Position numbers and translations under genes: made by a program
NCBI GenBank assembly: GCA_012026655.1
Contig: JAAILG010000030.1
Location: 1-64,000 of the forward strand
DNA length: 64,000 nucleotides
Reading direction: 5' to 3'
DNA from: Hydrolagus affinis
Taxonomy: Eukaryota
The notes under the pieces: generated by a model
What the model was told of the DNA's origin: nothing
Seen by the model: the letters and a program-made list of their open reading frames with translations, nothing else
The model's database searches: none
In this document: piece by piece, positions 80 to 63,586 of the stretch
How positions within the stretch are numbered: position 1 is the first letter of the stretch
Layout of the letters: each line of letters starts with the position of its first letter

Positions 80-167
80 ATGGATGGGATGGAGGAGCAG
101 TGGTCGAGATCTTGCCTAGGCCTCCGGGCCAGAGATGTCTCGCCCACTGCACAGACCAGCAGCAGAG
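80..167 (+). CDS. Coiled-coil protein gene, putative first coding exon (MDGMEEQWSRSCLGLRARDVSPTAQTSSR/G)
   Basis: In-frame ATGs at 80 and 89 follow an in-frame TGA at 68-70. Strong donor GAG|gtgagt after 167. The phase 1 end matches the phase 1 start of the exon at 2361. Confidence 0.65.
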
Positions 168-423
168 GTGAGTGAGCCCTGGGCCCAGAGTGAGACCTTA
201 TTACACAGTAACTAGATCACTTCACGACCATCGATGATGATGACGATGATGATGATGATACGAATAAATAACAGTACTAATCCTCCTCGCCTTTGCATTT
301 TTGAGGGATTTATTGTCAGGCAGAGTCAGGAAACTTGCCCAAGCTTTCGCCCTGATGACGATGATGATCATGGGAGAGAGTGAGTGAGTGAGTGGGAGGG
401 GTGGAGAGAGCGTTGGAATGCCG

Positions 424-800
424 GATAATAATAATAATAATAATAAAAAAAATGACAACTCTTGCGTCGTTTGGAGAGAGCACCTTCTCCCGTCTTCAAG
501 ACAGTCTCAAAGCGCTTCCTCGACTAAACTGTGAAGTACTGTAAAGTTCTGACAGACAGAGAGAGAGAGGGTCGTGGACCCGAAGCGCCTTGGGACGTCC
601 TCCCGACGTGAAAGGCGCTCTATAAATGTAATTTGTTGTTGTTGTTGTTGTTGATTGACTTTCCTTACTCTGTAGATGCTGCCTGACCTGCTGAATAGTT
701 CCCAGTGACTTCTGTTTTTGTTTCAGACTTCCAGCATCTTCAGTATTTTGCGTTTCGTTCACTGTAAAGTGAATTGACTGTATATTATGTGAGTGAAACT
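424..800 (-). mobile_element. 3' part of a Deu-type SINE with (TTA)n tail, interrupted by a composite insertion at about 548-760
   Basis: (AAT)n run, tctcaaagcgcttc and actgtaaagtgaattgactgtatatt match the reverse complement of the SINE 3' end seen at 40040-40145 and 62640-62744. Confidence 0.7.
583..653 (+). mobile_element. L2 LINE 3' tail fragment (stem-loop plus (TTG)n)
   Basis: agcgccttgggacgtcctcccgacgtgaaaggcgctctataaatgtaatttgttgttg is the same tail that ends the L2 ORF2 fragments at 4195-4856 and 5210-5676. Confidence 0.85.
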
Positions 801-2360
801 GTACGCTTAAGGTTGGGTGTGTTTGGATGAATCCATCACTTTGGGTGAGGCGTGGAAAGCCAGGTCCAGTTCAGCTAGTCATTAAAAGATCTCAAGGCTT
901 GAAAAGAGAGGGGAGGCTTCAACAACCACCCCACCCACCCCCCTGTCCCCCGATAAAATAAGCCATCTAAACAGCTGTTTTATGGGAAATTTGCTGCTGT
1001 TTTTGCCAACAAATACAGTCAGCGATATAGTTCGATGATAAACTTTGCAGAAACTCCTGTGACGCCCCGTGACAGAGTGATGTCTCACTCAGATGCAAAG
1101 AGTATTATTATTATTGTTAGAAATTGGCAAGTTTCTTTTGTTTTGAAAGGATGTTTCTTTTTTTTAAAAACAAACAAACAACTGCCTCTCTTCCGCAATC
1201 CCATTGGACACGTTTGTCAGAAATGTGTTGCCGTTTTTCTGTTTCCACTGTTGGACTGCGAAGTTGAGTGTTCAAAATTGTTAGCACTTTACTGTTTCTT
1301 GAAATTCAATGTTTTTCGAGCAGCACATTGTCACATTTGTGAAAATATCTCACCTGTAATTTACCAGGTTATGTGTAGGTTCAACAGTACAATTCCTTTA
1401 AGTTACTGGTTACTTTGCTCTAAATGTGCAACATTGTAATAGTGGGAGTGGTAAACAACAACAACAAAATTACACCTGTACACAGCACTTTAAACCCATC
1501 AATCTATTTCAGAGAATAATAAATGTATGAATAATAAATGAGAAATATATTTATTGCTACTAGTATAATGATGATAACAGGTAATAAATAATTAAGGTTG
1601 AAATTTTAATTGGTTCTCTAGTCATTTGAAAAGTAGTGGAATGTATGAATGTGTGCCCACTATATTTCCATCAAGTTTCTTGATCTTGAGTTTGCCGTTT
1701 GGGTAAGGTAGTGTCAACTAGAGGCAAATTCATAAGGGCAAGGAAAAATGATGATGGAATTAGGTTTTTTTTTCATGGATTTTCCAAATGACCCTGATCA
1801 TTGGCTCTGTGCAGCATGGAACTGAGTCATGTTGACTTAGAAGGTTCCAGGGTTCAATCTGCAAAATCAGTATAATTGTCTTCTGAGCTGCGATAACCAG
1901 CATACCGGATCCTTACCCTGCTTTTCTTTCCATATCCCTCCTCTAAATAATGTGAAATTTGCAGATCTATGAAGCAGCTAAATTTGTACAGCTGTAATTC
2001 TTCACGCGCTGCATAGAATGTGTACATTTGCTGCATAGATTGAATCAACTCCGGGAGAACCCATTGAGCCACACGTTGGTAACTATAGGAGATAGGAGAT
2101 AGAAAGAGAAATGATAATTTGTTACCCACAGCGAGAAGGCCTGGTTGCATCTTAATTCAAATTAAGTAGCTGACACCATTGAGACGAATTTGCTTGGCAA
2201 GAAACCTGGATGCTTTTTCTTATATGGAGTAGCATGCTTTCAAATTGCATCTAAGTACAGTATTCCAGCTTCATCAAAATTAAAATGCGTTTTACTCAAA
2301 TCCTTTTAGTATGTAGGAACAAGTACTAATTTATTTATAACTTTCATTCATATTTTTCAG

Positions 2361-2515
2361 GAAGTCTTGGTGGAGGGGCTGGAATAAGGAGTCATGAAGA
2401 TGTAATTGTCCCTCGGCGTGATGTACAGAAACTACTTGGTGAGTTCCGAGCACTACATCAAGAACGACTGCAGCGATTAGAAGCTACAGATGATGGAACA
2501 GAAGAAACTCTTAAG
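2361..2515 (+). CDS. Coiled-coil protein gene, exon 2 (GSLGGGAGIRSHEDVIVPRRDVQKLLGEFRALHQERLQRLEATDDGTEETLK)
   Basis: Acceptor tatttttcag|, donor AAG|gtttgt, 155 nt, phase 1 to 0, open frame with an amphipathic helical pattern. Confidence 0.88.
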
Positions 2516-3059
2516 GTTTGTTTCATTTACTAGATGTATTGAATTAGAAAACATTTATCCAGAAAATATATTTTTTAGTGTTGTTTATTAATTGCTTAAT
2601 TGTGGTATTAACCAAAATATAAAAATCTCATATTGGGTAAATGGGTTCTATTAGAATAATGATATTTACTGTAATACACTTTTTGAAATGGCTAAAGTAG
2701 GATTAGTTTTACTCTTCCCATCTATTTTCTTGTACCAATCCCTCTTTACATAATAAACTTTGCTCAGCCATTGAAAGAGTATTTAACATGATCTCTTATT
2801 GGGAGGAGAATGGGAAGGTCATTCAGGTGAAGTTTTGTACCAATCGCCTAGAGAAGGCATGTTTGTGTGGGGAATATATATTTTTCTGTTTCAAATACAC
2901 AATAATTTGAATCTTGAATTCAATATAGCATGTCAGGAGGACATCTCAAAGTGCTTCACAGGATTCACTGTAAGGTTTGGTCACTGTATTTTGCAAGCAA
3001 AATCTGTCAACATGTCACATAAACAGCTATGAAGTAGATGTCCAATTTTTATTTGGGGG

Positions 3060-3270
3060 ATTATTGGCCATGACACTCTCCTTTATTTGGATAGTCATGG
3101 GAACTTTAAAATCCATGTGAGAAAGCAGGAGAAAGGCACCACAGCACAGCACATTCCCAGGGCTGTATTGGAGTATCATTTGAGACTACAAGAATTCAAA
3201 GTCTCAATGTGGGGGCTTGAATCCTTAACCTTCTGACATAAAGGTGAGAAAGCTATCAACTGGGACTTTG
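3060..3270 (-). mobile_element. Old SacSINE1-like SINE, degraded
   Basis: atagtcatgggaactttaaaatcca...ggggcttgaatccttaaccttctgac...gctatcaactg resembles the copies at 39720-40230 and 54965-55130. Confidence 0.6.
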
Positions 3271-4194
3271 ATATTTCTATCAAGAAATCCCAGGTCAGAT
3301 AATGCAGATTGTAGGTGTGTACTCTAGGTGTGTACTCTACCCAAATAATGTTCTTTAGTTCCAATGTATAAAGATCAAAATACCTACAGAATTTATGAGA
3401 ATTTATATGACAGACATGCTCTCTGAGTGAGAGTGTAAATTGTGTGTTTCGCCATACACGCACACATTTGACTTTTATAGCCAGCACATTGAGGAGACTT
3501 AACCAATGAGCTTGAGCCCCAGAGGTGAAAGGACAGTATTAAAAATCACTGTGCCATTCAGTATCCAGTGTTTAAACTACTTAATTGCCCTTTCCTTCAC
3601 TTGTCGAGTGTATAAAGCTGACTGCATAACTTATCCTCTTTCCACTTGTGTATATATTACATCAGCTTGAACACCTAAATTTAATAATTCTGTAAATTAT
3701 ATAAAAAGCAATTAAAGTTAGAGGTCCTGCAGCAAAGGTAAATTAATGTTGATTTACTTTTTTTTAAAACACAAATTCACATTAGAAATATAGTTTCAGG
3801 TATTGGAAAATCAAGTTTATTACATTGATAGGTTAGTGAAAACTATTGAACATTATTGTACGGTAATAAAAGTGACATTTTAATCAATACTGTCAAATGC
3901 ATTAGTGTTTTAACATGGAAAAGCTTTTTGGTTCTGTTTAAGAAGGTTCATCGTTAGTTCTCTGCTGCGTGCTGCTAAGAGTAAGCTGAGCATCAGAATT
4001 CAATTATTGCTGCTGTACGCTATATAGACATTCTACATCACAGCTTGCCAAAATTTCTATCACTCTCAAAACGACTGGAGGAAATAGTCTTGCAAAGCTT
4101 GGCTACAATTTAACTGCAATCAGCGCAAAGCAAACTTTTTAAAACATTGCTTTATTTATTAAATAGGTTTATGTATCAGTTTTATCGAAGGCTT

Positions 4195-4856
4195 GTGATA
4201 GGCCTCCTCAATATTGCCCGACTCCGCCACTACCTCATCCGTCAGGCCGCTGAAACCCTCATTCATGCCTTCATCATGTCCAGGCTCAACTATGCCAACG
4301 CCCTGCTTGTCGGCCTTCCCAATTCCTCCCTCGATAGGCTGCGGATAATCCAGAACTTTGCGGCTCATGTCTTCTACCGCAACAAGCTTTGTGACCTTAT
4401 CTCTCGCATCCTTGCTCAACTACATTGGCTCCCCATCACCTATAGAATTCAATTCAAGATCCTGGTCCTCACATTCAAAGCCCTCCATGGCCTTGCCCCA
4501 CTCTACCTTTGAGACCTCCTAACCCCTTACCAACCTGCTCGTGCCCTCCGCTCAGTCTGCTCCAAGGCCCCATTCGCCTCACCATTGGCAGACAAGCCTT
4601 CAGCCATACTGCCCATAATCTGTGGAAGTCCAACTCGCAGTCCCTCTGTCTCACCTCCTCCCTAGCCTCCTTCCAAATACCGCCTCAAAGCCATCCTCTT
4701 TGACGGTCCCATTGGTCACCCCGAATCCCCCCCTTTCCCTCCACCCTCCCCGTCCCCGACCTCAGCTTGGGTCTAAAACAATGACTTTCCAGTGCCTTGG
4801 GATGCCCTCCTGACGTGAAATGCGTTATACAAGTGCAATCTTGTTGTTGTTGTTGT
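4195..4856 (+). mobile_element. 5'-truncated L2-clade LINE (ORF2 C-terminus, 3' UTR, (TTG)n tail)
   Basis: Translation AAETLIHAFIMSRLNYANALLVGLP...LHWLPITYRIQFKILVLTFKALHGLAPLYL is the typical L2 post-RT region. It ends in a stem-loop and ttgttgttg. Confidence 0.92.
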
Positions 4857-5209
4857 ACTTGCCCTCATTTTCTCGCCTCCATCCCTTAACCTCATCCCTT
4901 CCCTCATTCTTCTGTTTGACCGTGCCTTCAGTAATTTTCCCACCCTCACTCTTCTCGAATCCAATCCACAACTTGACTGCAGTGATTTGGGACATTCTCC
5001 TGATGTAAAAGACACTATATCAATACCATTAAAAAAATAATAATAATTTAAGTTGGTTGAAAAGCAAATAACTAGAACATTAGAACAGTGGAAGTTTTGT
5101 GAAATTTATGTCATTTAAAGCAGGAGTTAAAATTATACAAGACAAAGAAGTAAGTAAATAAATTTTGGCAAAGAAGTAAGAAGTAAGCAGATTAATTTGA
5201 TAAGATCAT

Positions 5210-5676
5210 CCAAAACTCTGCAGCTCGTGCACCAGACTCCGCGACCCCATCACTCCCACCCTCGCCTGGCGCCATCTGCCAGAAGATGGAATTCAAGATC
5301 ATCGTTTTCGCTTTCAAGGCCATCCATGGCCTTGCTCCCTCCCATCTCTCCGACCTGCTGACTCCCTACCTACCTGCCCGCTCCTTCCATTCACCGGTCT
5401 CCTGTCTGCTCCATGTCTCCTGCCCGACCCGCCCTACCTTTGGTGGCCTGGCTTTCAGCCTCACTGCCCCCAAACTCAGGAACTCGATCCCACAGTCACT
5501 CCGCCTCACTTCCTCCCTTGCTTTCTTCTCGAGACCCTCCTTTACGATCATACCCTCAGTTGCCCTCCTATGTCTCTGCCTCCCCTAGCTCGGGTCCCGA
5601 TCCCCGACTGTTCAGCACGTTGGGATGTTTGCCCAACGTGAAAGCGCTCTATAAATGTAATTTTGTTTTATGTTGT
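5210..5676 (+). mobile_element. 5'-truncated L2 LINE
   Basis: EFKIIVFAFKAIHGLAPSHLSDLL...AFSLTAPKLRNSIP followed by the same 3' tail. Confidence 0.9.
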
Positions 5677-7231
5677 GCAATTGAATGTTACCTACTCGGT
5701 TGTTAGTATTACAGACTTGAACTTCCTTTAACAAATTAATTTTAAGGCTATTTCCAAGTCTCAATTATGAAGCAAAACTCAGCAGTGATACACTTGTACA
5801 TTGTACACCTGCTTCTCTAGGTACTGTGTGTTATCATTTGGCCTCAGAACAAAATGTTGAATTTTTATTTTCTACATACTGTACAGACACACAGGTGAGT
5901 CCACACACATAACCTCTTTATTGCAGACTTTATAAAAACTAACATCTACCCATATCGTCAGTTTTTTTTGGAAACATTCCAATTTAACCTTAATAGAACA
6001 TCTTGGATTCTTGTTAAGCAGGCCAGTTTTTATTGTGGAGCTGGACATGGTGGGGTGGGTGAGGTCATCAAGATTTTGCTGTGAGGGAAGTATTTTGATT
6101 GATCTACATGTGCACCGAATTATCAGGGACCATACTTTGTCATTTTGATTTCCTTCTTACACAACACTGATTTCTGAATCTCAGTTCTAACTGCAAGCTG
6201 GTATATGTGGTTTGAACATGTTCTTCAAAGGCAAGCAAATGGACTTGTAGATTGCATTGTGTAGGTAAATTTAAACTTGTGTTCATTATGATACATGTAT
6301 TTACCATCATACCCAGATTAAGACTCTGAAGCAATGGTGAACAACCAATACAATCTGAAGAGAGAAAATCTGAAAATGTTAGTTGAACTACAATATAAAC
6401 TTTAGCTACTGTACTGTAATAGGAAAGCCAATTTGCCCATCAGTATTAGAATGGTAGCTCAGTATTGTTCTTGATTATCAGATGAGATATCAGCATTAGG
6501 ATCGCTTGTATTTAGGCAGTAGTCAAAGAGAGAGATTGGTCTTCTGAAATATCTTGAATGATGATTCCTTTTATCATCCAATTTAAATATTATTTTAACT
6601 CTTATACTCTTATAATTTCATTTTAGGTGCTGTTTAGGCAGGTATTTCACTAACTGGTTGACTTATCTGAAATGGTAACCAGTTGTAACAGCATTTTCAA
6701 AACCAAATGATTTTGGTTACAAGTGCAATATATGTTTTATTGTTAAAATCTAGTTCCTTTAAGTGGAAATAGACAAAAGTGATTGATTTTTGTTTGTTGA
6801 GCCAGTAGAACTGCCATGCTCATTTTTGTATTCTAAAAATAAAATGTCAAACTGGAAAAGGAAAATTAGTTATATACTCCATTAAAGGCATAACTGATTC
6901 TAAAAATGATTTAAAGTAGTGTAGGTTTCCCTATCAATATTTACATTTAAAGTTTTCAGCCTGTGTTACAGTGACAGCTGATCAATACTATCTACTGCTT
7001 TATGAATTTGTACTGAAGCAATAACCATGTATTTAGGAAGTGAATAAAGATTTTACACTGACATGTTTCACACCGTAGAGAAATGTTAAAATCCCAGAGT
7101 GAACCTCTTTGAACTAATGTCTGAAAATATTAACCCACTGGTGATGGCTTGTTGAGGATAGCACTAGTCAGTCAGTGGTTTAATTCATCTGTTTTTCGGG
7201 AAGAACAGTGTGACTGCTGAGCATGACTGTA

Positions 7232-7345
7232 TTAATAATAATAATCCTTGTATTTGATATAGCGATTTTTATGTCTTTTAGATGTCTAAAAGTGCTTCAC
7301 AGAATTTACCGTAAAGTGAATTGACTGTATATTTGTGGGAGAAAT
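7232..7345 (-). mobile_element. Deu-type SINE 3' fragment
   Basis: taataataataatccttgtatttgatatagcg...gtgcttcacagaatttaccgtaaagtgaattgactgtatatttgtggg. Confidence 0.85.
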
Positions 7346-9337
7346 AAATAGGAAATAGGAAGGTCTCATTTTTCAAAGCCATATCTTTGGGAAATTTTTC
7401 AGTTTAACAGAAAAGTCCTCCAATAGAGTGAATTGGACTATTCTTGAAGACAGTTTCTTTTATGTGCAGAGTTAACAGGATCATGGATTTTTGGTCCATG
7501 AATTTTTTGAAAAGAAATGAAGGATTGTTTTACATTTATATCAAGGACTTTAGAACCAATATATTATTTGAGAGCCTTGAATATTTTTGAAGAGATTTGT
7601 TCAAATCTGGTTTGCTTTGGGATTGCACTTCCACAGGTGAAATGTAATATTGAGAGCAATATTTATTCACCTATTCATAAAGTGTTTGCTGTCACTAACT
7701 CTTCATGCGAATTCATGCATGTTTCTAGTCTCTGTATGTTACAGTACTATGTGGTGAACTTTGACCACAAATCTATTGAGCTGTTCCAACAATTTTAGTG
7801 TGGAAGTGCTGTTCTCCTCAGGGATTGATTGCCAAAGATGAGTTTGTCCAGGTAGTCTTTAAGTTACTGTAAATGGTGAAGCTTTAATACATAATGCAAT
7901 GACTCATATTTGGATTAGAGCAAATAAGAAAGGGTATGGTTTAAATCCAGAAGGGTTCAGTTGATTAGTTTTAAAATTATGTAACATCGCATAGCATCTA
8001 TATACTGTTTTCTCGTGCTACAGCGCAGTAAGAGATTCATCTTACTTACTTTAGAAGTAGAATTTTGTGTTCTGATTAAATGTAGACGATTAAATCCATC
8101 TACAAGGTGTCTGTGATGGCAACAATGCAGCATTTTTCAATGGGTAGGGATGCAGTTATGAAAAAATTAATATTTCTGTCAGTTTAGCAGTGAACCAATG
8201 TTGTTATTGAATGACCGAACTATTTGCAGGGTGTTGACTTGGATTTCTTTTTAGCCAACAGTACTGCTAAGATACGTGCCAAATATTTGTGCCATTAGTT
8301 AGATCATTTTTCCTGTTAACAGTTATTGTTGTTGACTAGGGAAGAAAATATTAGGGTCACGATTTCCTTTTTAAAAAATCTATTGTACTGTGGATAAATG
8401 CCAGGATTATTAAATTCTCATGGATTTTAATGTTTTCATGATACGGAAGCCTTGTGAAGGAAGGGATCAGTAATATGTTCAGTGGTTAATCTATTTAATT
8501 TTATGATTAGACATCTAACATGTTCAACACCATGAGTATTCTGACTACTTATAAATAGATGAAATATTTAATAAATACCTAACATCTGTTTTGAGAATTA
8601 CTGAATCTTATATAGGGTTCATTCACAGCAGCAGATAATTTTATCAAAGGGTTAAAATGAAGAAGAAGACAATGATTATTTTAACAGATAAATGGGTTCG
8701 CTTCATTCTTTTCCATGGAGATGAATGAAAGATACTTGGTCGAGCTGTTTAAGTGCTTTAACATGGTGTTCCTATTAGTTCTGATACCTGATCTGATCTT
8801 AATGCTACGGTATATGAAAGATGGATAGATAATCCTGGCTGCCTACAGAGATTGATGGCTGGATTGATTGATCGTCTAATCATTTGAGGAAATGGGCCTG
8901 AAAATGAATGCAACTCTGCCCTTGGCTTTCAGGGAAAATTGCAAAGTTACAGGGTAATGTGCTAAGACAGGATTTCATTTGTACCTAATATGTGGTTATA
9001 TGATCCCACACAATAGCTAAATGATTAAAAAAAAGGAATCAATATACAGTATATTGCTTATTTAATTTTCAAATTTATACCTTTTTTGGAGTAAGATCTG
9101 ATGGCAAAGAAATATCTAATTTTATATATGAAACGTGGAACTGTTGAGGGTAGAAAATAGGAAGAGGCATAGGTCAACAATTTGTCCTGTTCATATAATT
9201 TGCTTTATTTCTGAAGTAGAATCAAGTAATGAAACAGTCTGATGTTACACCAAAATTTACTTTGGTTTTTTTTAATCTACAAAAAATTAATTTGCAGTCA
9301 GATTTCTCTTGCAGCTTTAGTGTTAAAGATTGCTGAT

Positions 9338-10035
9338 ACAACAACAACAACAAGTCCAGGACACCCAGGGGCAGGGGTAGAAAGGTGATCAAAGGCACGG
9401 TCGAAGAGAAAGGTCTTTAGCTGAGACCTGAAACTGGGAAGAGAGGGGGCGAGGCGAAGGGAGTGAGGAAGGGAGTTCCAGAGCCTTGGGGTGTAGTGAC
9501 TGAAGGCACGGCTGCCGATGGCGGACCGGAAGATTCGGGGACAAGGAGGAGACCAGACCCGGTAGAGTGAAGGTGTCGGGTGCTGGTTTGAGGAAAGAGA
9601 AGGTCGGAGAGGTAGGGGGGTGCAGAGGAGTGGAGGGATTTGAAAACAAGGGTGAGGATCTTGAAGTCGATCCTCTCTGGGAGAAGAGCCAGTGAAGACT
9701 GGCAAAGACTGGGGTAATGGGGGAGCGAAGTTTGGTGCAGGTGAGAATGTGGGTGGCAGAGTGTTGAATGAGTTGGATTTTATGGATTGTAGTGGAGGGG
9801 AGACCAGCAAGGAGGGCATTGGGATAGTCCAGCTGAGAGGTGACAGAGGCGTGGACCAGGGTTTCAGCAGCTCTTGGGGCGAGATATGGCCAGAGATAAG
9901 GAGGCAGAGGAAGCCCTGGCCACAGATAGAGGACATTGTTTGTGACTTTCATAAGCGCAGTCTCTGTACAGAGTGGAAACCGGACTGGAGAGGTTCAAAA
10001 GGAGAGTGCGAGGAGAGTTGAGCATGGAGTTGGTG
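9338..10035 (-). mobile_element. 5'-truncated, frameshifted L2 LINE
   Basis: Track ORFs 9389..9952 (AAETLVHASVTSQLDYPNALLAGLP...LHWL) and 9298..9936 (AFSHYTPRLWNSLPHSLR...FRSQLKTFLF); (CAA)n tail at the left end. Confidence 0.92.
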
Positions 10036-10344
10036 ACTGTGTTACAACTGTATCAAGAATCTACAACTTCCAGAAAAGCAATGTGGTCCAGTAAAGTAGG
10101 TGATACAGTGATACAATATGTCTTTATGCTGAAAAATGCTTCTGCTTGGCATGGTAGGGGAAAGAGGTAGATAATCTATTTCCCCATTTTAGGAAGGGCA
10201 AACCACAGAAAAAAAGGTACAATTATAGAGGGAAGAGAAAAATTAATTGGTATTTTACATGGATTCTTTTAATGTTCATATGGATTGTTTTCAATGATCA
10301 GTTTAGATGAAAAAGAATGTTTTCCCCTGGCTCGATGTCAGCCA

Positions 10345-10404
10345 CTGTGGAGCGTTCTGGGACACTGCCCTGCGTGAAGAGCGCTATATAACTGCATGTT
10401 GTTG
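10345..10404 (+). mobile_element. L2 3' tail fragment
   Basis: gagcgttctgggacactgccctgcgtgaagagcgctatataactgcatgttgttgttg. Confidence 0.75.
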
Positions 10405-12033
10405 TTGTTGTTGTAGATAGACAAGTTACAGGAAGAGTTGCTTGAGTGTCCAAGCACTTCTGTTTCACTAGATGCGATTCCTTGGAAGAATGGGGAAGGG
10501 GCAGGCGCACCATTAAAAAGGTAGGATTTAAAGTGGGATTGAAAGACACAAAGAGAGGGGGCAAGACAGAATCATGGAGGAAGTTCCAGAGGTTATGGAA
10601 CTGAAGTCACCAATGGTGTTGTGGGAAGAGCGCAGTTGTAGAGTAAGCCTGACTTAGCTCAGTGGAGGGAATGAACAGAGGAGTAGGATAAGAAGATCAC
10701 AGATATAAAGAAGTGTCAGCGAGTGGAATGATTTGTAGGTGAGGGTAACGGCCTTGAATCGATCTGCTGTAGTGCAATGAAGTGTTTTTCTTTTCACTAA
10801 CCTATTGCAATATTGCAATGTTATGTAAAAAATGACTTTCAGTATATGGCAGTGTTATTAAACAGATGAATGTTATTGGCATATTTAGATTGTGCTCATT
10901 AAACAAGTTCACAAAGTTACAAACACAAAGTTTCATGAATGACTGCACGATTAATGTTTCTTAGCATTTTTAAGTTAAACGTCTGGGGTGCCATTTGATC
11001 TTTATAATTGCCAACAGCTGTGTGTGTATGTACTAGTAAGTTATATTTATGTAGTATACTTGTATTAAAAAGTTAAACATGTTCATGAATGTTATTTCAG
11101 GCCATTTATGTGTAAATGATGCATACATTGGAAACATTAATTTATATAGATTGGCTTCTTGATAAGCACAGACACTTCTGGTGTGTTGCTTTTGCACTTA
11201 CTAGAAATGGCAAGTAATTCCAAATGATGGAATTACAGATTATGTCCCTTAAGTCAATTATAATTATTTAAAAATTAAATCAGTTTTGTAACATGGTTCG
11301 TACATTTATAGGTTTTCCACAATAGTTTGCATGACTTCCCTTAAATACTTGGATGTGGATTTACTTTAGAATATGGGCATTATAAATGATTGTTTCACTC
11401 AGACTGTACATTTAACTATGAGAGAAGGATTTCTATTAATTAACATTTACAGGCTTAAAAACATTCCTTTACCTATAGGAAATGCTAAATACAAAAATAG
11501 TCAAATGGAACTTATCCTGAGCTTCCAGTACTTCACTACTGAACAAAAACTTGCTTTTCCCATCTGGTATTCATTTTATATTTCAAATACTCACTTGTGT
11601 GAGGTATATTAACCTAATAATGAGTACACAGTATTTTATTATTATTTTTTTTTAAATAATGTATTGTCACTTACAATAGCAGAGTAGTTTTTGTGCATGT
11701 ACAAAGTACAAATACTGTACTTTGCTCTATGTTAGTGTGTGTTCTCAGTCCTAGTACCCATTAGATTTACTAAAAAATCTTTACCCAAATCTTCAAATTC
11801 ACAATCCTCCATACAGCACTTATACAATCTCATCCAGCCCTGCAATCTCCAATTCTGGTTTACTCTTTCCATGTCACCATTCATGCCCATGTCTTCAGCT
11901 ATGTCTTTATTTATGATGGTACTTTTATCTTATTATTTGAAGACCAACACAAATGTAGTATTCTCAAGAAAGAAAATGATCACTAAATCTGTATTTCCCC
12001 CCCCCCCCCCATCCCCCAAACTGCTTTGTTTAG

Positions 12034-12162
12034 TTGAAGGTGCAGATCATGCAGACTTATATCAATGACCTGTGTGAACAAAATGATGTTCTGCTTCAGA
12101 CAATGGAGGAGCTTGAAAGGGAAGCCAACAGAAAAGTAACTGCTCTACAGACAGAGCTACAG
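12034..12162 (+). CDS. Coiled-coil protein gene, exon 3 (LKVQIMQTYINDLCEQNDVLLQTMEELEREANRKVTALQTELQ)
   Basis: Acceptor ctttgtttag|, donor CAG|gtaagc, 129 nt, phase 0-0, heptad-spaced L/I/M with E/Q/K. Overlaps track ORF 12034..12222. Confidence 0.92.
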
Positions 12163-12294
12163 GTAAGCGAAACATTGAAACCTGTGTACAGTACTTTGAA
12201 AATATTAAATTTATCATTATGATTCTTGAAGTTTGTAAACATTTTACTGTGTACAAATAATAATAATAATGATGATGCGCACGCATTTCTAAAT

Positions 12295-12372
12295 GAATCA
12301 TAGTAGCATAGAATTATACAGTACGGAAGGAGCCTATTCAGCCCATCATGTCTGTGCCAACTCTTTGAAAAA
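12295..12372 (-). mobile_element. CR1-type LINE 3' end fragment
   Basis: catagaattatacagtacggaaggagcctattcagcccatc...ctctttgaaaa matches the start of the copy at 34996. Confidence 0.75.
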
Positions 12373-15294
12373 TGCTTCAAATATTCTGCCATTTACAGTC
12401 CTTAAGGAAGTTTTGAAAAGAAAATATAATTATGTAATTCCTTCTTATTGTGTATTATATAATTTAAAAAAAGTCAATTTAACATTTTCCGATTGCAAGC
12501 TTTGTGGGACTAGATCACATGGAATAGACATCTTACCAGTGAAGTCTGAAAACTATGTACAATCTTCATCAACAGTATCCCCGCCAAACCCTACCAATAC
12601 TTTGTAAAACTCATCTGTTAAAAGTACGTTTGAGAACGTCTAGAACACATGTCAATTTATTATTCAAGTATTATTCTTACTTTTCCTTTAAACTTGTGCT
12701 AAAACAGCTTTTCAAAATGGTTAACGTACATTTAGCTAATTTTTGCTTGAAGTTTACTTGAGAAATGTATAGTTTGCTTTTGATCCATTTGAGGCTTGTT
12801 CAGCTTTGCACTTGATCTCTAGTTCCATCCACATTACCAATTTGTCTTGGTATTTTCAGCAATGATATAAGAATGCAATTGAAGGCTCAAGGAATATGTA
12901 CAGATAAAGATTGAATACAATGGGCATTTTGCTTGTTGGCGCTACGGCAATGTCAGTAGGTTTAATTGTTGATAGCTGTTGTTGAGTCTTGCTCAACTAT
13001 TATATGATCAGGAAGTTTTACAGTACTATCTCTTAGGTGAGTGACCAAGTACAGTAGAATTAATCTGAGGGCAGTTTCTTAATGTGAAGATTGCTCTTTT
13101 TTTCTGCCGTGTTTTTAAATGTTTGCAATTTGAGTCAGTAATGCTTTTTCTCACTGAAAACCAGTTTATTTTGATTTGGTGCTCTACATAATTTGGAACG
13201 GAAGAATTTTCATTTTATTTTTGTTTGAACATTTTCCAAAGCACTCATATTTTTGAATGTAAGGTGCTGAAAATTACTTACAGTATCAAATGATCTGGAT
13301 AAATTGCAAAAACGTATTTGATTCTCTGAGATGTATTTCATTAGTCTTACTAGCTTCCCATTGATTGGATATTTTCTGTGAATTATGCCTAAATCCTTTC
13401 GACCTTTGCAATTGACATCTCCATTGTGTGCCTATATTTTGTGTTCAATATGCTTAGCTTTGCGTTTATCTACATTTAAATCCATCTGCCTTTCCTCAGC
13501 TTATTCACTTCAATGGTCCAAATCATTCAATGCTACCAATCTCCCTTGTACTTGTCACCAGCGCTTGGTGTCGTTAGTAGTTTTTATGATATGACAAGTA
13601 TGCAGAGAGCTTGTAAGAGCCCAAGGCACACTCCTACAAAACACTGAAGTGTTCATTATAATTAACCATAATTAGGACAATTTTCAAATTCATATAATGC
13701 GGTTGCTTGATGGCATGTTTTAAGAACTTGTATGTGGAGCCACTTCTGATCCTCCACACTTATTCTAGGAAGGTGGGCTTTTGGCTCAGATTTAATGCTT
13801 TTTCTTTTTGCCAATTTGTTACCTTGCTTTCATTACTCTGCCTGCTAATATGGTTATTAGCAATGTTCTGCCATACTTTATTGAAATAGGAAACTTGAGA
13901 GTACCTTGTTTAAATAGCCCAAGGTTGCCTGTATCATTATAAAACATACTAAATGTTCATTATGACAATTAAACATTTAAATTGACATAATATTTGAATT
14001 GTGGCAGTTGAGCTCATCCTTGAAATTGGGAGCTTTAGTACCTGCTTTCAGCTAACTATTGCTATTTTTTAGTGTAATTTATCAGCAATATTAATGTTAA
14101 ATAAAATCTTAAGCAGTTGGCTTGTCAGAAATCATTGATCTAATATTAGATATTATTGTACTGTGATGATCCTCTTGGTTCAATGTGCATAATGAAGTGA
14201 TGAAGGTAAAAGTGATCCTCCAGGAAAACGATCACCTTCCACAATTCTAGTGTTACATCCGAATCTAATGATGGTCATCATGATGTGCTTTTTAAATAGG
14301 AAAATTAATTGATCCAGCACCATATATCAATCTACATATTTTTGAATGAACAAGCAATTTATTTGTTAATAAGCAAGTCTTATTTGGACATGAGGAACTC
14401 AGATTATGGACAACAACAACAACAAAATTCTATTGATAGAGCGCCTTTCAGGTCGGGAGGAAGTCTCATCTCCTGCCCCCCTTTCTAATGCTACAGGATC
14501 ATTCAATTGGTGTAGAACATCTTTGATAGAAGATAGAAGCAATATGCTGAGGATCAAATGTACAAATTCTTGCATTTGAATTTGCATATGTGGTATGACA
14601 CTGGGCTGTATTTATAGGTTACTCAGATGTGCACAATAGACCATTAAGAATAACCGCATTATACTGCAATGTAGAACAAGATTCATTTCCTTGGTTGCAT
14701 TACGAATGAATTTCATTATGAATTACAACTGTTTTGGGTTTCTATCTGTAGTTTTGGTTCATATGTCGTGTGTTGGCATTATTGTCTTTATGTTTATCTT
14801 CTTACCCATCTGTTATGCCTATTCCATATTTCGCTTCGTTATTTTTCATTGCTAACCATTTCATTTTATTTATTCTTTTGCTGGGAAATGGTGTTTTCAG
14901 TTTATATTCAGCTGCTGATTATCATAGTAAGGCTTGCAGTGATTATGTTACATTTGTTACTGTTCCATTTGTCATTAGTGGCTGTTGGTAGGAAGAAAAA
15001 AGTAACGGAAAATGGTTAAAACTGCCCCATGAACCACAGTGTATATTATTTTTTTAATGGAATTGATCATAAGGAAGTAATCTCATCCGAGGGTTCGCCT
15101 GATAGTTGTAAATTGCTTGACATCTATGAAGTTTTCTGAATGCTTGAATGAGATCAGTCTTGATTACTCCAGGGGAACATTTTTTCAAAAAAATATGAAG
15201 CCAACTCTTCTGATCCTTTTGGCAATTTCTTTATTAGTGTCTCTTTAGCCAATCATCCTATACTTTGAAATAAAAAGAATGAATTGAAAAGCAA

Positions 15295-15404
15295 TATTTC
15301 GCCCACAAAATATGGTCAATTCACTTTACGGTATATTCTTTGAAGCACTTTGAGATTTCAAAGACATGATAAGGCATTATATCAAATACAAGGATTATTA
15401 TTAT
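15295..15404 (+). mobile_element. Deu-type SINE 3' fragment
   Basis: tttcgcccacaaaatatggtcaattcactttacggtatattc...tatcaaatacaaggattattattat. Confidence 0.85.
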
Positions 15405-15826
15405 CTTTCTTTCTTACATATCACTACCCTTTGTTTTCCTAAACTTAGTCCTACCTTGTTCTTTGTTGCTATTGAATTCAACCCTTTTTTTAAAAAAAAA
15501 AGTTCCTCCCGTTCATTTTAGTTTTTTAATTGAAGTTCTCGGGTTTGCAATGTCTAGTTGAAAATACCATCAATTTAACTCTAAATTAAAAAAAATCAAA
15601 TTGCAGAATACAAGTTGGAATGTAAATAACAAATATTGCAAGCTAAATAAATAACTGCTTGTGTCCTTTGTTTCTTGGTCATTGTTCTTCTATAACCCAA
15701 ATCACATCGGCAATGCATCTCCATAATTTGGAAGTTATTCAGCTTCCAGCTAAGTTTTGTCAACTGTGCATCCAGTGCTATTGTTTCAAATGGAGCTTTT
15801 TATATCACCCAGAGAGAAATAGGTGC

Positions 15827-16170
15827 TAATGGATAGGGAGCCAGTGGAGCCTGGCGAGGGTGGAGTTGATAGCATCATGGAGACTGGTGCGGGAGAGGAC
15901 ATGAGCTGCAGAGTTCTGGATGATAAGCAGCTTGTGGAGGGAAGAGTTGGGAAGGCTGACAAGCAGGGAGTTGGCATGGTTGAGCCTAGATGTGACAGAT
16001 GTGTGGAGGAGGGTTTTGGTAGCCTGAGGGGAGAGATAGTGGCGGAGCAAGGAGATGTTGTGGAGCTGGGGGAAGGCAAAGCGGGTCATGGCAGGGATGT
16101 GGGGTGGAAAGGAGAGTTGAGGGTCAAAAAAGATGTCAAGGTTACGGATTGGCTCAGTCAGGTGGAAATG
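15827..16170 (-). mobile_element. L2 LINE ORF2 fragment
   Basis: Track ORF 15826..16089: LRHYLSPQATKTLLHTSVTSRLNHANSLLVSLP...LARLHWLPI. Confidence 0.9.
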
Positions 16171-17934
16171 TGCATCGCTGTGTACAACTCAAATAAGTGT
16201 ATTTATCATTATGCGAGCAAATAAACACATTCATAGCACAGAAAGGATTAAGTGACCAATGAAATAGATTTTGTGATTTTTACAAAAGTAGATTAAATAT
16301 CTGGTAACCAAGGATCGTTAGTTTCTTTTAGAAAAAAAGTAAGATTACTTCCAAATGTCTGTCATAGCATTGTTCCATTTTAGTGAAAGCTAGATATAAT
16401 CCCTATCTGCCAAAAGGAATCAAACCTCAATAGCTACATAGTGCTAGTAGTGTCAAAGGTCGGTTACGTGCTGTAAAAAGGTCCCAATCACAGTGACCTG
16501 CTCTTTGTTCACCCATTTTGGATTGAAAATATTCTCAATGTTGTTCAGAAATAGACCATGATATTGTTAGATCTTGACATTTCTAGAAGCTTTAACAGTT
16601 TATGACATCTTGGTCTCAAGGAGAATCTGCCCTCTTGTGGCATATCTTGTTAGCTGCTGAACTGCAAATCAGACAAATGCTGAAGACATAAAGCTATGCT
16701 AAATGGCATTCTTGCAACAGCTATGTAGGAGTCCCTGAGTAAACTGCTGAGCTCCACTAATTGTTTTCAAGAATGAACCAAGGGTTGTCATCCATGTGGG
16801 TGATATTCCCATCCTCCCCAGAAATATTAAGTGTCCATTTGTTGACCTTTGCTTGTGTTGTTCCCGGAAACGTTTAGAAAATGAATCAGTGTTAATTCAA
16901 CTTGAGCTTGGACTCAGGTTCTAGTGCACACACAGTGGCTTTCTTCTTCCCATTGAACTAAATCCATTAGAGTAACGTTTATCATTGATTCTCATTCCAT
17001 GGAAGAGGAACCAATGTTGACACCACATCAGCTTGTAGTCAGTCACCTCTTAAATCTTTCCATGATTGATTTTCAAATAATTCTTGCCTAGGACATCAAA
17101 TCCACACAAAATGCTTCATGTTTCTATAAAGTGGGCTGTGTATTTGTAGGCAAATGTAGCACCCAGTTTGTCTGGAGGATTGTTTGTCAGATACCTTTCT
17201 CTTAAAAGTGAATAATAATGATTATTATTATAATAACCAAATCAGTTTCTCCCTGCAAAGACTTTAAATGTGTGACGGCTCACAAAATGTGGCACACTTA
17301 AGATGCACGATGATCAGAAATTGCAAAAGTTACAAAAGTATTTCTGAAATCAATATTCAATTGAGCTGTGTAACCACACTACAGACTTTACAGTAAAAGG
17401 TAATCCTGCACAGAAGTCTATGTTGGAATTATGTAACTGAATTTTAGAGAGATCTGAATTATCCTCACCATAGAGGACAAGAAAGTTTAAAGCTAGCCCT
17501 CTGGATTTGCTGCTGTTGCTTGAAGGGAATCTGGTTACCGTTGATTTCTTTTGAACATCAAGAAATTGAAAAAAATCAACTATGTTTTGTCAATGTATAT
17601 ACATCATACGTTTAAGTCTCGAATCCCATCTCAGATATATCTATCTGTATTTTTCTTTGCAGGTAATTAATGTTAACTTCAGCAAATGACAAAATCTGTT
17701 AGGAAAAAGGATTGTCACAGAATATATATAAATATATATATGTTAGCCCTGGAACTGCTTTAATTTTGTCTGGGGGTAAAACAATTTCCTGTGGGGAAAA
17801 AAATCTTCTATTGATTAATTTTCTGCAAATTATGTAAAATCCTTCCAGAAATAATGAATTTCAATGCTGAAATGAGACGGTTTTTAAAATACACAGTGAA
17901 TAATCATATCTATTCAATATTCTTTATGTGACAG

Positions 17935-18018
17935 GAGCACGTTGCTAAGGTAACTGAGTACAAGGAGGAGAACAGTACCCTACTTGCAACAAAAGAAAAT
18001 CTGGCCAAAGAAATTGCT
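17935..18018 (+). CDS. Coiled-coil protein gene, exon 4 (EHVAKVTEYKEENSTLLATKENLAKEIA)
   Basis: Acceptor tctttatgtgacag|, donor GCT|gtaagt, 84 nt, phase 0-0, E/K-rich heptads. Confidence 0.85.
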
Positions 18019-47905: not shown

Positions 47906-48052
47906 GTAGTTGGCAAAGATAAGAAAATACAGAAATTGCAAGACATCATAACTGAGCTTCACAATGACGTGGCTCTGAAGGAGTCGGAGAATCTAAACCA
48001 ACTGCAGGATATCCACCTTCTGGAGAACAATATTAAAGCCTTGAATGAAGAG
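47906..48052 (+). CDS. Coiled-coil protein gene, exon 8 (VVGKDKKIQKLQDIITELHNDVALKESENLNQLQDIHLLENNIKALNEE)
   Basis: Acceptor tctgtgttatag|, donor GAG|gtattg, 147 nt, phase 0-0, clear heptads. Overlaps track ORF 47936..48142. Confidence 0.92.
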
Positions 48053-55130: not shown

Positions 55131-55299
55131 TGGTTGCTGGTAGTCTGTGTGGTCATTTTGTATAAATGACTTGGATCGTGCAACTGAATCCATGAAAAGT
55201 CTCCCAATTGATTTTTTTTAAAAAAATCTGATATTCTGTAAAGATATAATTGCAATGTACAGTATACTGTATATAGATGTGTTTGATTTCAGCAGTAAA

Positions 55300-58395: not shown

Positions 58396-61300
58396 AAGTC
58401 AGAATCTAGTCCGCCCTCTTGGTCGGCCAATTCCTGAGCCAGATGAGTCTGCTGTACGCCAAGGCACTGTTGATGACAGCCCACCCAGCCTGGCTCATTG
58501 ATAATACTTGGAGGGACTAACCAGATAATGGGGGCAAGGATTCTTTAGCTCTTGTTAACTCTGCAAGCCAAAGTCTTAACACGTAGGGTGGTGCTCAACT
58601 GTACAAGCAGCAAGAATTCTTGCCAGACAGTGATTTCAATGACAATCTATGTGGTTATTGGTTAGATTCCAGCAGTACCCCCAATGCACTGTGGGGGTCC
58701 CCAAGCCTAGGCACTTGACAACATGTGCCTAATACTCTTCAGAATTAGGTAAGCAGAATGCAGCCCTCCTGGGAGATCATGCATTCTATTCCAATAAACG
58801 TGTCGGGAATTTCCATGTGTAGGTGGGATGCATGGAACTCTGGTTTGTATACGCTAAAGCATTGTGATGGGTTTCCGCATGTGTCAAGACACCTGGCTGA
58901 CCCCCCAAAAAAACCTAGATCTTCAGTTTGGTTTGCTGGTAAGTGGCATAATCGGAAGAAATAAATCCTGGACAGAAATGTTTTTAAATAATGTATATGA
59001 AGTTGTTTAAATTCAACCACAACCACAAAAGACTTTTAGAATCAAATTTATAACTATTGCATATGAGAACATCTATATATTGCTATTGAAAAATGTTGCA
59101 GTTTTGGCCATAAATGGAGAATAATGAATACCTGTGAGAGATTACAAGGCAGTAGTTTAGTTGAGGAGCCGAGTGACTTCATAAATCATCTAAATCCTGA
59201 GATTCGATTGCAGTCTTGAAATCAATCCCCATGTTCCTTTGTGCTAATTCAGTCAGACATTTATGCATCATACTGCAGTTATCATTCTTTATTAATACCT
59301 GATGAGCAACAAATGGTACATTTTAAAAGTTGAATTGTGTGATAATGTATATTTCATTCCATATTCACACAGGCCATACCACACCTAAGTTGTCCCTTTA
59401 TCTTAACAGGATTTGATTGTCTAACTGAGATGGTCAAGATGCCTCTCAGTAATTGTTTTGATACCCATATACACCAGTTTAAGACTTTTCATTCGGTTCT
59501 GTAGTGTCATTAAGCGTCGATGAAGGTTAGCACGCCTTACGTTTTGAGGCAGAATTCTCTACGATGAGAATGGTATCTACTATGATGAATTAAGGTAAAT
59601 ATATTTAAGCAAAGCAGATGTTTTACTGCATTCAGAAGATATCTTTGGTACCCAAATAAATCGGTTTTATAAGATTTCTTTATGAACAATACAGGACCAA
59701 ATCTTTTTGAACAATCTTCTGCCAAGGAAACTGGCTATTTATCCAACATCATCCAACGTCAACATCAAAGGTTCAGTTTGATGGGGAGGGATTAAAAACA
59801 ACCTTGTCTTTTCTTTTACAGCTTGATGGTGGTTTTCAAGATATTCACTTTGTTTTAGATACAATTGCTGTGTTTGATATTGGATAGTTTTATTTGTTTT
59901 ATTACTCGAATTCACTTTTAACTCAGAGGGTTGAGATTGAGCAAATCTCTTTGACCATAACTAATACAAATCCTCAATTCAAGGTATCTCCTGTAATTTT
60001 TGAACATAAGAAAATCAACGCCAAATTTGCATGGTGCAGATTGAACATTCTTGATGATTCCACAACATATTGTTCGTTATCTTCTGTGCAACTTTATGGA
60101 AAGAAGACGTAATTGTGACTCACTTAAACCATGTTAATCCCCATGAAGTTTACAAAAATGTTTCTGAACTCGCTATTTTATTTTCACAGTTTGGGAGCCC
60201 CCACAAAGCCCTTCAAGAAAGCCAAGTTCAGTCATTCCGATCCAACAATCTACTGAAGGTTGAGGTAAAATTCACAGACATTGTTGCAGAGCTAGGTTTT
60301 ACAATGGGAGGATGAGAACACTTATATGTCAATCCCAGCATTTGAGAACCAATGTACATATCAAAAAGTTTTTTTGAAGGGTGGTGGGGAGAGGGGGTGG
60401 GTGGGGTGGGTGGGTGGTGTGGGGGGAGAGGTTTACGGTTCGGTCCATTGAACAATACCCATTTTGGACAATACAGAAAGAGTTATCTATGGGAACCAGG
60501 TTAATCCCTTCAGAATTCCAGTAATGAAATAAAGCAAAAAGAAACTATCCAGTATGTGCAGCAATTTTTCTAAAACTAAACTCCACTGCACTGAGTAGAT
60601 TAGCATTTATTGATGGGAATCTCAGAAGAAGTCACTTATTTTCTTGACGTGAAACTTTATTTTCGATCAATTTCAAATGGATATTATAGTGTGCAGCATC
60701 AAATTCTGTGTCAGGTCTTGCCATTATCACCCCCACTGCAACCCTATTATGTGAAGCAAAGATTTTTTTTAGCAGAATGAAAAGCAGCATATTGGGTATG
60801 TGGCAATAGTATCAGAATTTATAAATTGCTAACCCTGAAAGCCTTAACAGCTGGGTTATATATAAAGTAAGGAAGAAAACAAAAAAAAATCAGTTGTGTA
60901 AAAACAGCTGGGATCTTGTTAAAAATATATATAACACAGTGGCTTGGTTCAAGGGCTATAAAACTACTTGATCTTTGCTCTTTACTTTATGATATCTGTT
61001 TCCCTTGAGTGAGATACAGTCTCGTAGCATTGTCTCAGTTTGTTCTCAAATATTTCTCTGAGGTGTTGACACTAGATTTCCAATCAATGCACAAAAAAAT
61101 GCAAGTGTCCTATTCTGAATATATTGGGCAAGGGAAGTATGTTTTTCCTAGTGTGAGGGGATCACAGAAAATGATATAAGAATTTGCTAATTTTTCCTCC
61201 TTAAAATGATCACTGTTGACTGGTTCTAAAATGTTGGGCAAGGGAAAACCTCCTTTAACAAATTGTTACACCTTTAAATGGAAAAATAAAAGTAACTGCC

Positions 61301-61784
61301 AATGGAAAAACGACGTAGCAAACTTTAAACCAGTCTGGTAAAGTGTCTTGTAATAATAATGACTATCGGTATTACTGCAGAGTCATTGCGATTTTAGGCT
61401 AAAAAGGTAATTTATGTCAGTTTGCTACAGATTGCCCACGATCCCTAAATAATATGCCTCCTGAGTCATTGCTTTTACAGTTTGAAAGAATCTTCTCCAC
61501 TGGCAATTGTGCATCAAGTCTTAGTACTGTAGTTTTTACTTGTTTTAAGCAGCTGCCCACCAAAAGTCTTATTGATTAGCTTTTCATACGACCTCTGGGA
61601 CTACTGCCCCAATCTAAAACCACTTCACTAAGATTATAAGGTTCACTTGTCTAACTTTTCCAGGTACAGTAGTTCCCAAAGTGTACAATTTCATCCCACA
61701 TTTCAGATGTCAGCTTGTCTTTAATTTTATGCTCTTTCAGTGCTGCTCCGCTTGAAGAGTGCAATGTAAATGTAAATTGTCATT

Positions 61785-61880
61785 ATAATAATAATAATAA
61801 TCCTTGCATTTGATATAGCGCTTTAGAAACTTAGGTCTCTCGCTTGTAAAGCGACTGCTCTAACCACTGAGCTACAGGAC
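61785..61880 (-). mobile_element. Minimal SINE: tRNA-like head joined directly to the 3' tail
   Basis: Reverse strand reads tgtagctcagtggttagagcagtcgctttacaagcgagagacctaagtttctaaagcgctatatcaaatgcaaggattattattatt. Confidence 0.8.
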
Positions 61881-62447
61881 GTATTGTTGTCTATTTGATT
61901 AAATTAACAATTTAATTAATTTGTTGATTTGTGGTGCTCATATGTACATTCTGTTCCCACTACTTTGGAAATTTTGGCATTGAAAGTTGGAAGCACCTGT
62001 TTTTCATTTGTTTGGGTTTTTGCTCTCCTGCTCCCAGATGTGTGATGGTTAGACAATGAGTGTTGACAGATAATTTAATCATGGACGGCATTACAGTTAA
62101 GCCCGATCCTGTTCTTAGCCAATGTTCACGCATACGGAATTTCCATCAGGGGACACCGCAGATCGATTGGGAAATTCTGGCTGTTTCTTTTGTGTAGCCC
62201 AGGGATGGCAGGCAGGGCTGAGGTTTTATTGCTCAGGCTGCCCTCAGCAAACTGGGAACGTGAACCTGAAACCCTTTGAATTTAGTGCTACGCAGACCAG
62301 TTGGTGTCTTTACCCAGAAGACTCATCAGAGAACTGCTTTTAGGTTTAATATGCTATTTTGTTTCATAGCAAACAATTTCACATTTGGGGCAACAAGCAA
62401 CAAACCACAGCCTTGTATATTCATAGAAGGTGCACTATGGAGTACGA

Positions 62448-62744
62448 TGGAGCTCAGTGGTTAGAGCACTCCACTCACAAACGAGAGACCTGGGTTCAAA
62501 TCCAGCCAGGGCTAACCCTTGTGCAAGTTTCCTTACTTCACACGCCTAATAATAATCCCTCACAACAATAATAAATTGGTCATTTCAATCCATGACTGTT
62601 TGTGGGACACTGCTGTGCGCAACTGGCTGCTGCATTTCACCCACAAATATACAGTCAATTCACTTTACAGTATATTCTGTGAAGCGCTTTGAGACGTCTA
62701 GAAGCCGTGAAATGCACTTCATCAAATGCAACAATTATTATTAT
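62448..62744 (+). mobile_element. Full-length tRNA-derived Deu-domain SINE
   Basis: A box agctcagtgg, B box ggttcaaatcc, Deu core tgtttgtgggacactgctgtgcgcaactggctgc, tail atcaaatgcaacaattattatta. Confidence 0.92.
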
Positions 62745-63502
62745 CAGGGTTGAATGTTATAGGCAGCTGCACGTAATATAATTGTTTTAAAAACATTCTG
62801 GAATATTAACCAAACAATATTTATCAGATATCCTTCAGTTAACTCTGGTACTTTTTAATAATCCAATACTTGACATCCCAATTTCGGTGCCCAGCCAATT
62901 CTCTTACATGCTTTAGTGGATCCTCCTGACGTGAAAAGCGTTATATAAATGTAAATTTGTACTGTATAACACGCTTATTTCTAAACATCTTAACAAGTAT
63001 ATTTTGCTGATTGAGCAGTATAAATGTAATGACCTCAGTATCCCAAATGACCATATGGATAGTTTTGCATGCCTCTGAGCTATACAACCCCTTTAGCCTA
63101 ATGCTTGCCTGTTAATTTGTGTTGTATTGTATTGCTTTAATGCTATGAGAGATTGTTGCTCAGTGAGATTGATCAACGGATCATGTTCAGTTTTTTCAGC
63201 AGAGGTTTGTGGCTTCATTCATTTCTTTTGTCAAAATGAAGAGGCCATTGACTTGCTTGTTGTAGCCTTCTGCTCGATTTTTGTGGATTCAGTCAGGTTT
63301 TGCAATACTTAACAGTGATCAATAAAGGGCAGATGGTAATGAAGAGCTACCTCTCAATGCAGAGCTGGGGAAATGGGACCTTGTTTAGCTGTATGGCTGC
63401 AGCAGTGGGTTTTCTTAGCAGATCAATAGCTTGTCTTGTCTGCCTAATTGCTCATTGGTTGACATTCATGGATTCTTTCTTAAAATGTAAACTCTTTTGC
63501 AG

Positions 63503-63586
63503 CTCGAGCGACGTGATGGTACAATACTGCATCTCCGTAAAGAGGTCCTCCAGTTGCAGGAGAAGAGGGATAGGCTAACATGTGAG
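63503..63586 (+). CDS. Coiled-coil protein gene, exon 9 (LERRDGTILHLRKEVLQLQEKRDRLTCE); gene continues beyond the window
   Basis: Acceptor ctcttttgcag|, donor GAG|gtattt, 84 nt, phase 0-0, heptad leucines, no stop codon reached. Confidence 0.88.

Follow-up and report, generated by a model that had tools for sequence, protein, structure and literature searches.

The first 64,000 nucleotides (nt) of a 197,110-base contig of the chimaera Hydrolagus affinis (JAAILG010000030.1; this stretch is referred to as the window) contain the beginning of a gene that almost certainly belongs to the PMFBP1 family. The contig begins 79 bases upstream of the ATG, and the full gene consists of 42 exons in one open frame encoding 1,909 amino acids (aa), with the last coding base at contig position 189,161. 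The best explanation of the whole, in which we have moderate confidence, is that the product is a predicted coiled-coil tether in the sperm neck and a likely orthologue of mammalian PMFBP1.

The gene, its exons and its family

The exons are collinear, in order, with a protein from a shark that goes under the name pmfbp1 at NCBI. The 1,869-aa 'pmfbp1' of the bamboo shark Chiloscyllium punctatum (XP_072452086.1) showed 50.2% identity over residues 14–1838, and the Hemitrygon 'pmfbp1' was 50.8% identical to the chimaera protein. These models and that of Narcine are direct orthologues (~50% identity over 1,800 aa to sharks), as is Callorhinchus milii XP_042196319.1, which is mis-named 'early endosome antigen 1-like' and is 64–100% identical per high-scoring segment pair (HSP) past exon 1. 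All of them are computational only, those of C. milii span the N-terminal half alone, and the chimaera protein lacks two segments of about 50–57 aa that are present in the shark. The whole-length collinearity supports the PMFBP1 identity that the initial annotation had proposed tentatively. CCDC18, its other suggestion, was the name of none of the named matches, and no direct comparison with CCDC18 was made. The gene itself is no discovery, being already named in sharks by RefSeq.

In the comparisons below, P0001 and P0002 are C. milii models, P0005 is a shark pmfbp1 isoform and P0031 is a shark 'PMFBP1-like' protein. The automatic labels myosin rod, EEA1 and trichohyalin were rejected as reflecting composition only: what these proteins have in common with the chimaera protein is a long coiled coil with a 28-residue period, and neither a motor nor a FYVE domain was found in Pfam. 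EEA1 is characterized by a C-terminal FYVE finger, and there was no FYVE match in P0001, full-length P0005 or the 17 C-terminal exons. Pfam searches with the proteins of the gene gave generic coiled-coil matches only, and in two ESM Atlas searches the matches were likewise generic coiled-coil clusters, for which few shared features were counted.

Within the window, the initial annotation had joined nine GT-AG exons of given lengths and phases in one frame. A splice-site scan on length and phase re-found all nine; every intron is GT-AG, the introns between them span 2.2–15.5 kb, and the re-derived join of 1,014 nt (338 codons; phases 1,0,0,0,0,2,0,0) is free of stops. For each of the eight internal or last exons, the original choice ranked first or second among the open AG..GT candidates of the same length and phase in the window. 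Every exon aligned in order to the C. milii models, from 15/29 identical residues in exon 1 up to 28/28, and this exon-by-exon homology excludes a chance origin of the set; exon 3 by itself pulled out the C. milii protein at 84% identity. The nine exons are thus genuine, and the window holds the first 11 of the 42 exons of a real gene. As a complete gene the nine-exon model fell short, since it skipped an exon at 60190–60264 and another from 63897, and since the gene runs 125 kb past the window. Coding DNA amounts to 1,193 of the 64,000 nt (1.9%), in agreement with the earlier estimate of less than 2%. The 42-exon model, which was extended by homology and splice scan through 31 further exons after exon 11 up to contig base 189161, includes one GC-AG intron.

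All exons of the window lie on the + strand. Exon 1 (80–167; ATG at 80, donor GTGAGT) encodes a low-complexity N-terminus with the same start as P0001, to which it is identical at 15/29 positions. The N-terminal block considered below (N block; residues about 50–128) is encoded in exons 2–4. Its first helix starts at about 2420 within exon 2 (2361–2515; 50/52 identical to P0001 and 29/52 to P0005), and exon 3 (12034–12162; 37/43 and 31/43, respectively) carries its second and best-conserved half and leads into the coiled coil, which exon 4 (17935–18018; 84 nt, 27/28 to P0001) continues with four heptads. There is one paralogous copy of exon 3 elsewhere in the genome. The reads of exon 2 DNA showed one difference among the 40 rows shown, too few for an estimate of dN/dS (the ratio of nonsynonymous to synonymous substitution). 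Exon 5 (25058–25180; 29/41 to P0002), found in P0002 and sharks and not in P0001, is possibly alternatively spliced. Exon 6 (30789–30856) encodes a Ser/Thr/Pro-rich linker that is better conserved than the flanking coiled coil (22/22 to P0001, 18/22 and 19/22 to two sharks) and may possibly be a binding or phosphorylation motif. Exon 7 (34358–34493; 33/46 to P0001) encodes the end of the linker and the start of the long coiled coil, and exon 8 (47906–48052; 147 nt, seven heptads, 44/49 to P0001) is absent from shark isoform P0005 and present in P0003. The skipped exon 9 (60190–60264; 75 nt, phase 0-0, AG..GT) is identical to P0001 at 20/25 positions and to two sharks at 13/25 and 17/25. It is followed by exon 10 (63503–63586; 84 nt, 28/28 to P0001 and 24/28 to sharks), the ninth of the original set, and by exon 11 (147 nt; 44/49 to P0001), of which 63897–64000 lies in the window and which ends at contig base 64043.

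The exon structure follows the heptads of the rod. Multiples of 21 nt, exactly seven codons, make up 20 of the 28 phase 0-0 exons (p = 1e-11), and the rod shows a 28-residue period. Most exons being symmetric whole-heptad cassettes, their gain or loss keeps both frame and register, so that changes in length are cheap. Recent exon duplication was not supported as the source of the 84-nt exons (mean pair score 3.5 vs 5.7 ± 3.4 in the control). A 63-nt exon of three heptads at contig 168467–168529, which is not in the aligned shark isoforms, matches an insert in turtle, lizard, fish and mollusc proteins and is likely alternatively spliced. An alternative last exon after exon 22 (contig 116436–116495) is identical at 17/20 positions to the residues with which the RefSeq model of C. 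milii ends. A protein that used this exon would consist only of the half that mammals lack; the conservation of the exon may be neutral.

To the 3' side, a single sample from a related organism gave stranded poly(A) reads of single-cell type that covered the terminal exon and ~1.9 kb of 3' untranslated region on the expected strand (13, 55 and 86 reads in three runs), and the coverage stopped near AATAAA sites at 191,025 and 191,065. Three reads had a 10-letter loose end, the first six letters of which equal the end of exon 41, a short match that is merely suggestive. Junctions of the 5' exons were not seen among the 15 joints shown of 2,631 in one single-cell run on 1–18100, where the reads lay nearly all on repeats; as a poly(A) library is likely 3'-biased, this lack is uninformative.

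Two conserved motifs and the front half missing in mammals

The protein carries a conserved motif near each end: the N block, and a C motif about 70–140 residues before the C-terminus (contig 169735–171962). A search with the N block yielded 186 cluster representatives at E ≤ 0.001; 150 of these were listed, and 20 were checked by name. Among the named carriers were bamboo-shark pmfbp1, turtle and bearded-dragon PMFBP1, elephantfish pmfbp1, coelacanth and eel, and, from invertebrates, two crustaceans, three beetles, a sawfly, a bug, a cockroach and a snail. The C-motif profile recovered 116 proteins of 950 candidates, most of them called PMFBP1, together with mollusc and annelid fragments.

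AlphaFold modelling of a relative of 199 aa, which shares 55% identity within the block and was modelled from an alignment of 33 sequences, predicted two helices, the first of 25 and the second of 84 residues, joined by a loop of four; the confidence score (pLDDT) was above 90 across residues 61–160. The best match of the N-block profile to PDB sequences had an E value of 0.012, Foldseek with the model gave nothing at E ≤ 0.001, and no Pfam family matched more than 3 of 33 N-block proteins. The centrosomin CM1 motif (Pfam Cnn_1N) was considered and rejected, as it matched only one of the 33 (E 0.0026). The N block, an N-terminal domain with no description in the literature searched, has no assignment in Pfam, PDB or Foldseek.

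Mammals account for 7 of the 116 rows of the C-motif set: a fragment from koala and six long models that represent five species. All six long models aligned only from window-gene residue 853–911 on (to ~1836), at ~26–28% identity and 200–264 bits, in a single HSP for five and in two HSPs for one short isoform; none of the seven rows scored with the N-block profile. A profile of the mammalian N-terminus matched turtle PMFBP1 at 759–821 with 19.0 bits and at 792–855 with 18.1 bits, where the best reversed control had 2.2. This segment is the homologue of exon 22, and in a MAFFT alignment the start methionine of the rodent protein fell on residue 877. By these comparisons, the first ~870 residues (exons 1–21) appear to have no mammalian counterpart, the mammalian start lying inside the exon 22 homologue. 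The reported length of mammalian PMFBP1, about 1,000 residues (PMC8970482), agrees with such a loss. The human long non-coding RNA LINC01572 is a speculative candidate for a decayed remnant of the lost front part.

That the human N-terminus lacks the block had been put forward in the initial annotation, and the mammalian rows bear this out; its restriction of the absence to mammals did not hold, since snake, gecko and carp-like fish models also lack the block. Among the 116 rows, the N block was present in 28 (sharks, rays, turtles, two lizards and three bony-tongue fishes) and absent from the snake, gecko, anole, carp and catfish models, and its loss may thus have been repeated across lineages. 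The snake PMFBP1 models retrieved were all 619–846 aa, below the mammalian length, and further lineage-specific shortening in snakes is possible. The long form, found in sharks, rays, coelacanth, turtles and some fishes, appears to be the ancestral state, so that it is the mammalian protein that is truncated and not, as the initial annotation had put it, the present one that is N-terminally extended. Two observations weigh against this account. The N-block absence rests on gene models, and because some turtle models also lack the block, 5'-incomplete models or annotation may explain part of it. In addition, the mammalian N-terminal profile scored only 0.1 bits on the chimaera protein, as a 57-residue segment after exon 22 is missing in the chimaera.

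Orthology and predicted role

Each of the two motifs had exactly one other match in this genome, and a second PMFBP1-family gene was found split over two contigs (C27:2793–9421 and C465:8700–97810, both on the − strand). This paralogue gave 22 HSPs to P0031, which scored 1,413 bits on it vs 454 on the window gene, whereas shark pmfbp1 scored 1,949 bits on the window gene vs 609 on the paralogue. The order on the paralogue contig is ZFHX gene, PEX2, PMFBP1-like. PEX2, upstream of the paralogue, is a single open reading frame (+ in its stretch, 1010–1915), and the four-homeodomain ZFHX gene (C27:52281–66306, −) matches a ZFHX4 finger; the other ZFHX copy of the genome (C198:79527–88950, −) is closer to the ZFHX3 homeodomains. 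The human order is reported as DHX38-PMFBP1-ZFHX3 (PMC7899829), and human ZFHX4 is reported to lie with PEX2 (PMC11326360). The copy by PEX2 and ZFHX4 is therefore likely the whole-genome-duplication twin of the ZFHX3-PMFBP1 block; it has no prior description in the literature searched. No mammalian member of the twin group was among the named matches, although no search was aimed at one.

Since the paralogue occupies the ZFHX4-PEX2 site, the window gene would by elimination be the PMFBP1 orthologue, and we are quite confident that it is the true orthologue and not the twin. Several results speak against this assignment. The C-motif tree joined the window gene and shark pmfbp1 to amniote PMFBP1 with support of only 88/80, and it grouped teleost pmfbp1 with the paralogue. 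An approximately unbiased (AU) test on 774 columns rejected neither grouping (p-AU 0.248 with the window gene and 0.085 with the paralogue). Furthermore, no DHX38 or ZFHX3 exon was found on the window contig, and inspection of its end by eye revealed no DHX38 exon; the five HA2 matches for DHX38 were all on other contigs, and the ZFHX3 contig C198 did not overlap the window contig. It is nevertheless very unlikely that the window gene is the paralogue and that amniote PMFBP1 derives from the copy beside ZFHX4 and PEX2. Human PMFBP1 adjoins ZFHX3 and not ZFHX4 or PEX2, and it is the other copy that holds the ZFHX4-PEX2 site. Turtle PMFBP1 scored 352 bits on the window contig vs 242 on that of the paralogue, even though turtle and lizard were nearer the paralogue group in the N-block tree and the AU test left that grouping standing at p 0.085. 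Two mammals each matched the window contig only, and the shark orthologues of the window gene carry the NCBI symbol pmfbp1.

Mammalian PMFBP1 (STAP; ~1,000 aa) belongs to the apparatus by which sperm head and tail are coupled, as part of the SUN5-CENTLEIN-PMFBP1 complex, and it is collinear with the chimaera protein over nearly all its length at ~26–28% identity. In mouse, residues 750–1023 are reported to bind directly to CENTLEIN, which links to SUN5 at the nuclear envelope (PMC8363609). The C motif, common to both proteins, corresponds to residues 890–954 of the 1,027-aa rodent protein and lies inside this CENTLEIN-binding stretch. The chimaera differs in the ~870 extra N-terminal residues with the N block and in its second paralogue, and the functional data come from mammals only. 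By analogy, a sperm-neck tether role in the chimaera is somewhat favoured. Because the C motif lies within the mouse CENTLEIN-binding stretch, we propose a dimeric rod that would dock with its C motif on the centriole side via CENTLEIN or an equivalent, like the matching part of mouse PMFBP1. The N block would provide a second docking site, for another partner, at the opposite end of a rod that could reach about 250 nm if fully extended, at some 0.15 nm for each residue. Rod length would be readily altered through the symmetric whole-heptad exon cassettes, and mammals would have retained the C-terminal half only, with a new start codon within the exon 22 homologue.

A different proposal, in which the ancestral long protein serves ciliated cells in general as a scaffold that anchors basal bodies or centrioles and only the truncated mammalian form became sperm-specific, seems to us improbable but worth weighing. 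Relatives exist in arthropods, animals with few motile somatic cilia, which argues against it. So does the testis-specific expression reported for mammalian PMFBP1 (PMC12539209), and so, if it is a member of the family, does the silkworm namesake, described as testis-restricted and essential for sperm (PMC8970482). On the other hand, CENTLEIN is also described as a somatic centrosome protein (PMC8363609), and two paralogues permit a division of labour. The expression seen at the 3' end, in a single-cell poly(A) library whose tissue is not stated, is compatible with a general scaffold; testis specificity in the chimaera is thus a prediction only, which counts against the tether reading.

We consider it highly improbable that two neighbouring genes or transcription units are involved, exons 1–22 encoding a protein of their own and exons 23–42 a mammal-like PMFBP1. 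Both motifs are in single-chain models of bamboo shark, two rays, turtles, lizard, bony-tongue fishes, crustaceans and insects, and exons 22 and 23 are spliced together in an Ensembl-type C. milii model. The RefSeq model of that species, in contrast, stops right after exon 22 with the alternative last exon, which the chimaera has too, at the point where the mammalian protein begins, and no junction reads for exons 1–4 were seen. A short isoform of the N-terminal half could coexist with the full-length protein.

Other features were noted in the introns. Just past exon 14, contig 75412–75581 has a 51–59% translated match to the run-on tail in a model from a smoothhound shark, which points to conservation of a non-coding element. 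Fragments of repeats that contain open stretches and show very high read depth lie at 4114–4509, 5196–5638, 9301–9994 and 15823–16221; they gave no match in a Pfam search, and we take them to resemble the 3' ends of long interspersed nuclear elements.

Invertebrate relatives and the age of the family

To avoid circularity, the C-motif profile was rebuilt without arthropods, and 17 long N-block proteins (eight named arthropods and nine unnamed proteins grouping with them) were scored. Close to the C-end, six of the 17 reached 11.5–51.7 bits, against 0.4–8.9 for their best heptad-shuffled controls; the scores were 51.7 for mantis shrimp, 34.4 for prawn, 26.3 for sawfly, and 24.3, 12.2 and 11.5 for three beetles. 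The other 11, including bug and cockroach, gave at most 6.9 bits. The N block and the C motif thus co-occur in crustacean, beetle and sawfly proteins, a co-occurrence for which the literature searched holds no earlier description. Two separate motifs in the same order at opposite ends indicate homology rather than coiled-coil noise.

This contrasts with two published accounts. The silkworm study, of 2022, reports no insect homologues outside Lepidoptera and favours convergence (PMC8970482), and according to a 2025 review no PMFBP1 counterparts have been recognised in other species, a limit on work by genetics (PMC12539209). Silkworm BmPMFBP1 has the name, the coiled coil and a male-sterile phenotype in common with PMFBP1, it is testis-restricted and needed for sperm, and the paper leaves its homology open (PMC8970482). 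Two-motif proteins did turn up here in insects for which that paper had none to report, and BmPMFBP1 itself is a candidate member of this family. Drosophila Salto was considered as a fly candidate by description only, and the part of the Salto paper that was available does not mention PMFBP1 (PMC6589691).

Our judgement is evenly balanced on the broadest reading of these results, namely that PMFBP1 is an ancient bilaterian two-ended sperm-neck tether and not a tetrapod invention. It would be a rod of ~1,400–1,900 residues with an N domain and a CENTLEIN-side C motif, kept in crustaceans, beetles and sawflies, duplicated with the ZFHX3/ZFHX4 block in jawed vertebrates, and cut by its front half in mammals while the sperm neck was rebuilt. 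The gene itself is an ordinary-looking vertebrate gene, and the interest lies in the comparison: the double-length ancestral form, the located truncation point, the new N-terminal domain, the invertebrate relatives and the duplicated twin, none of which had a prior description in the literature searched.

Variants of PMFBP1 and SUN5 are reported to account for about 70% of human acephalic-sperm cases (PMC12539209). The two motifs defined from this gene mark the oldest, hence most likely functional, part of the human protein, and they provide a direct test for counterparts, which found relatives in beetles, sawfly, shrimps, molluscs and annelids. If the broad reading is true, an invertebrate counterpart for genetics would be supplied and the convergence reading of the silkworm gene would be overturned.

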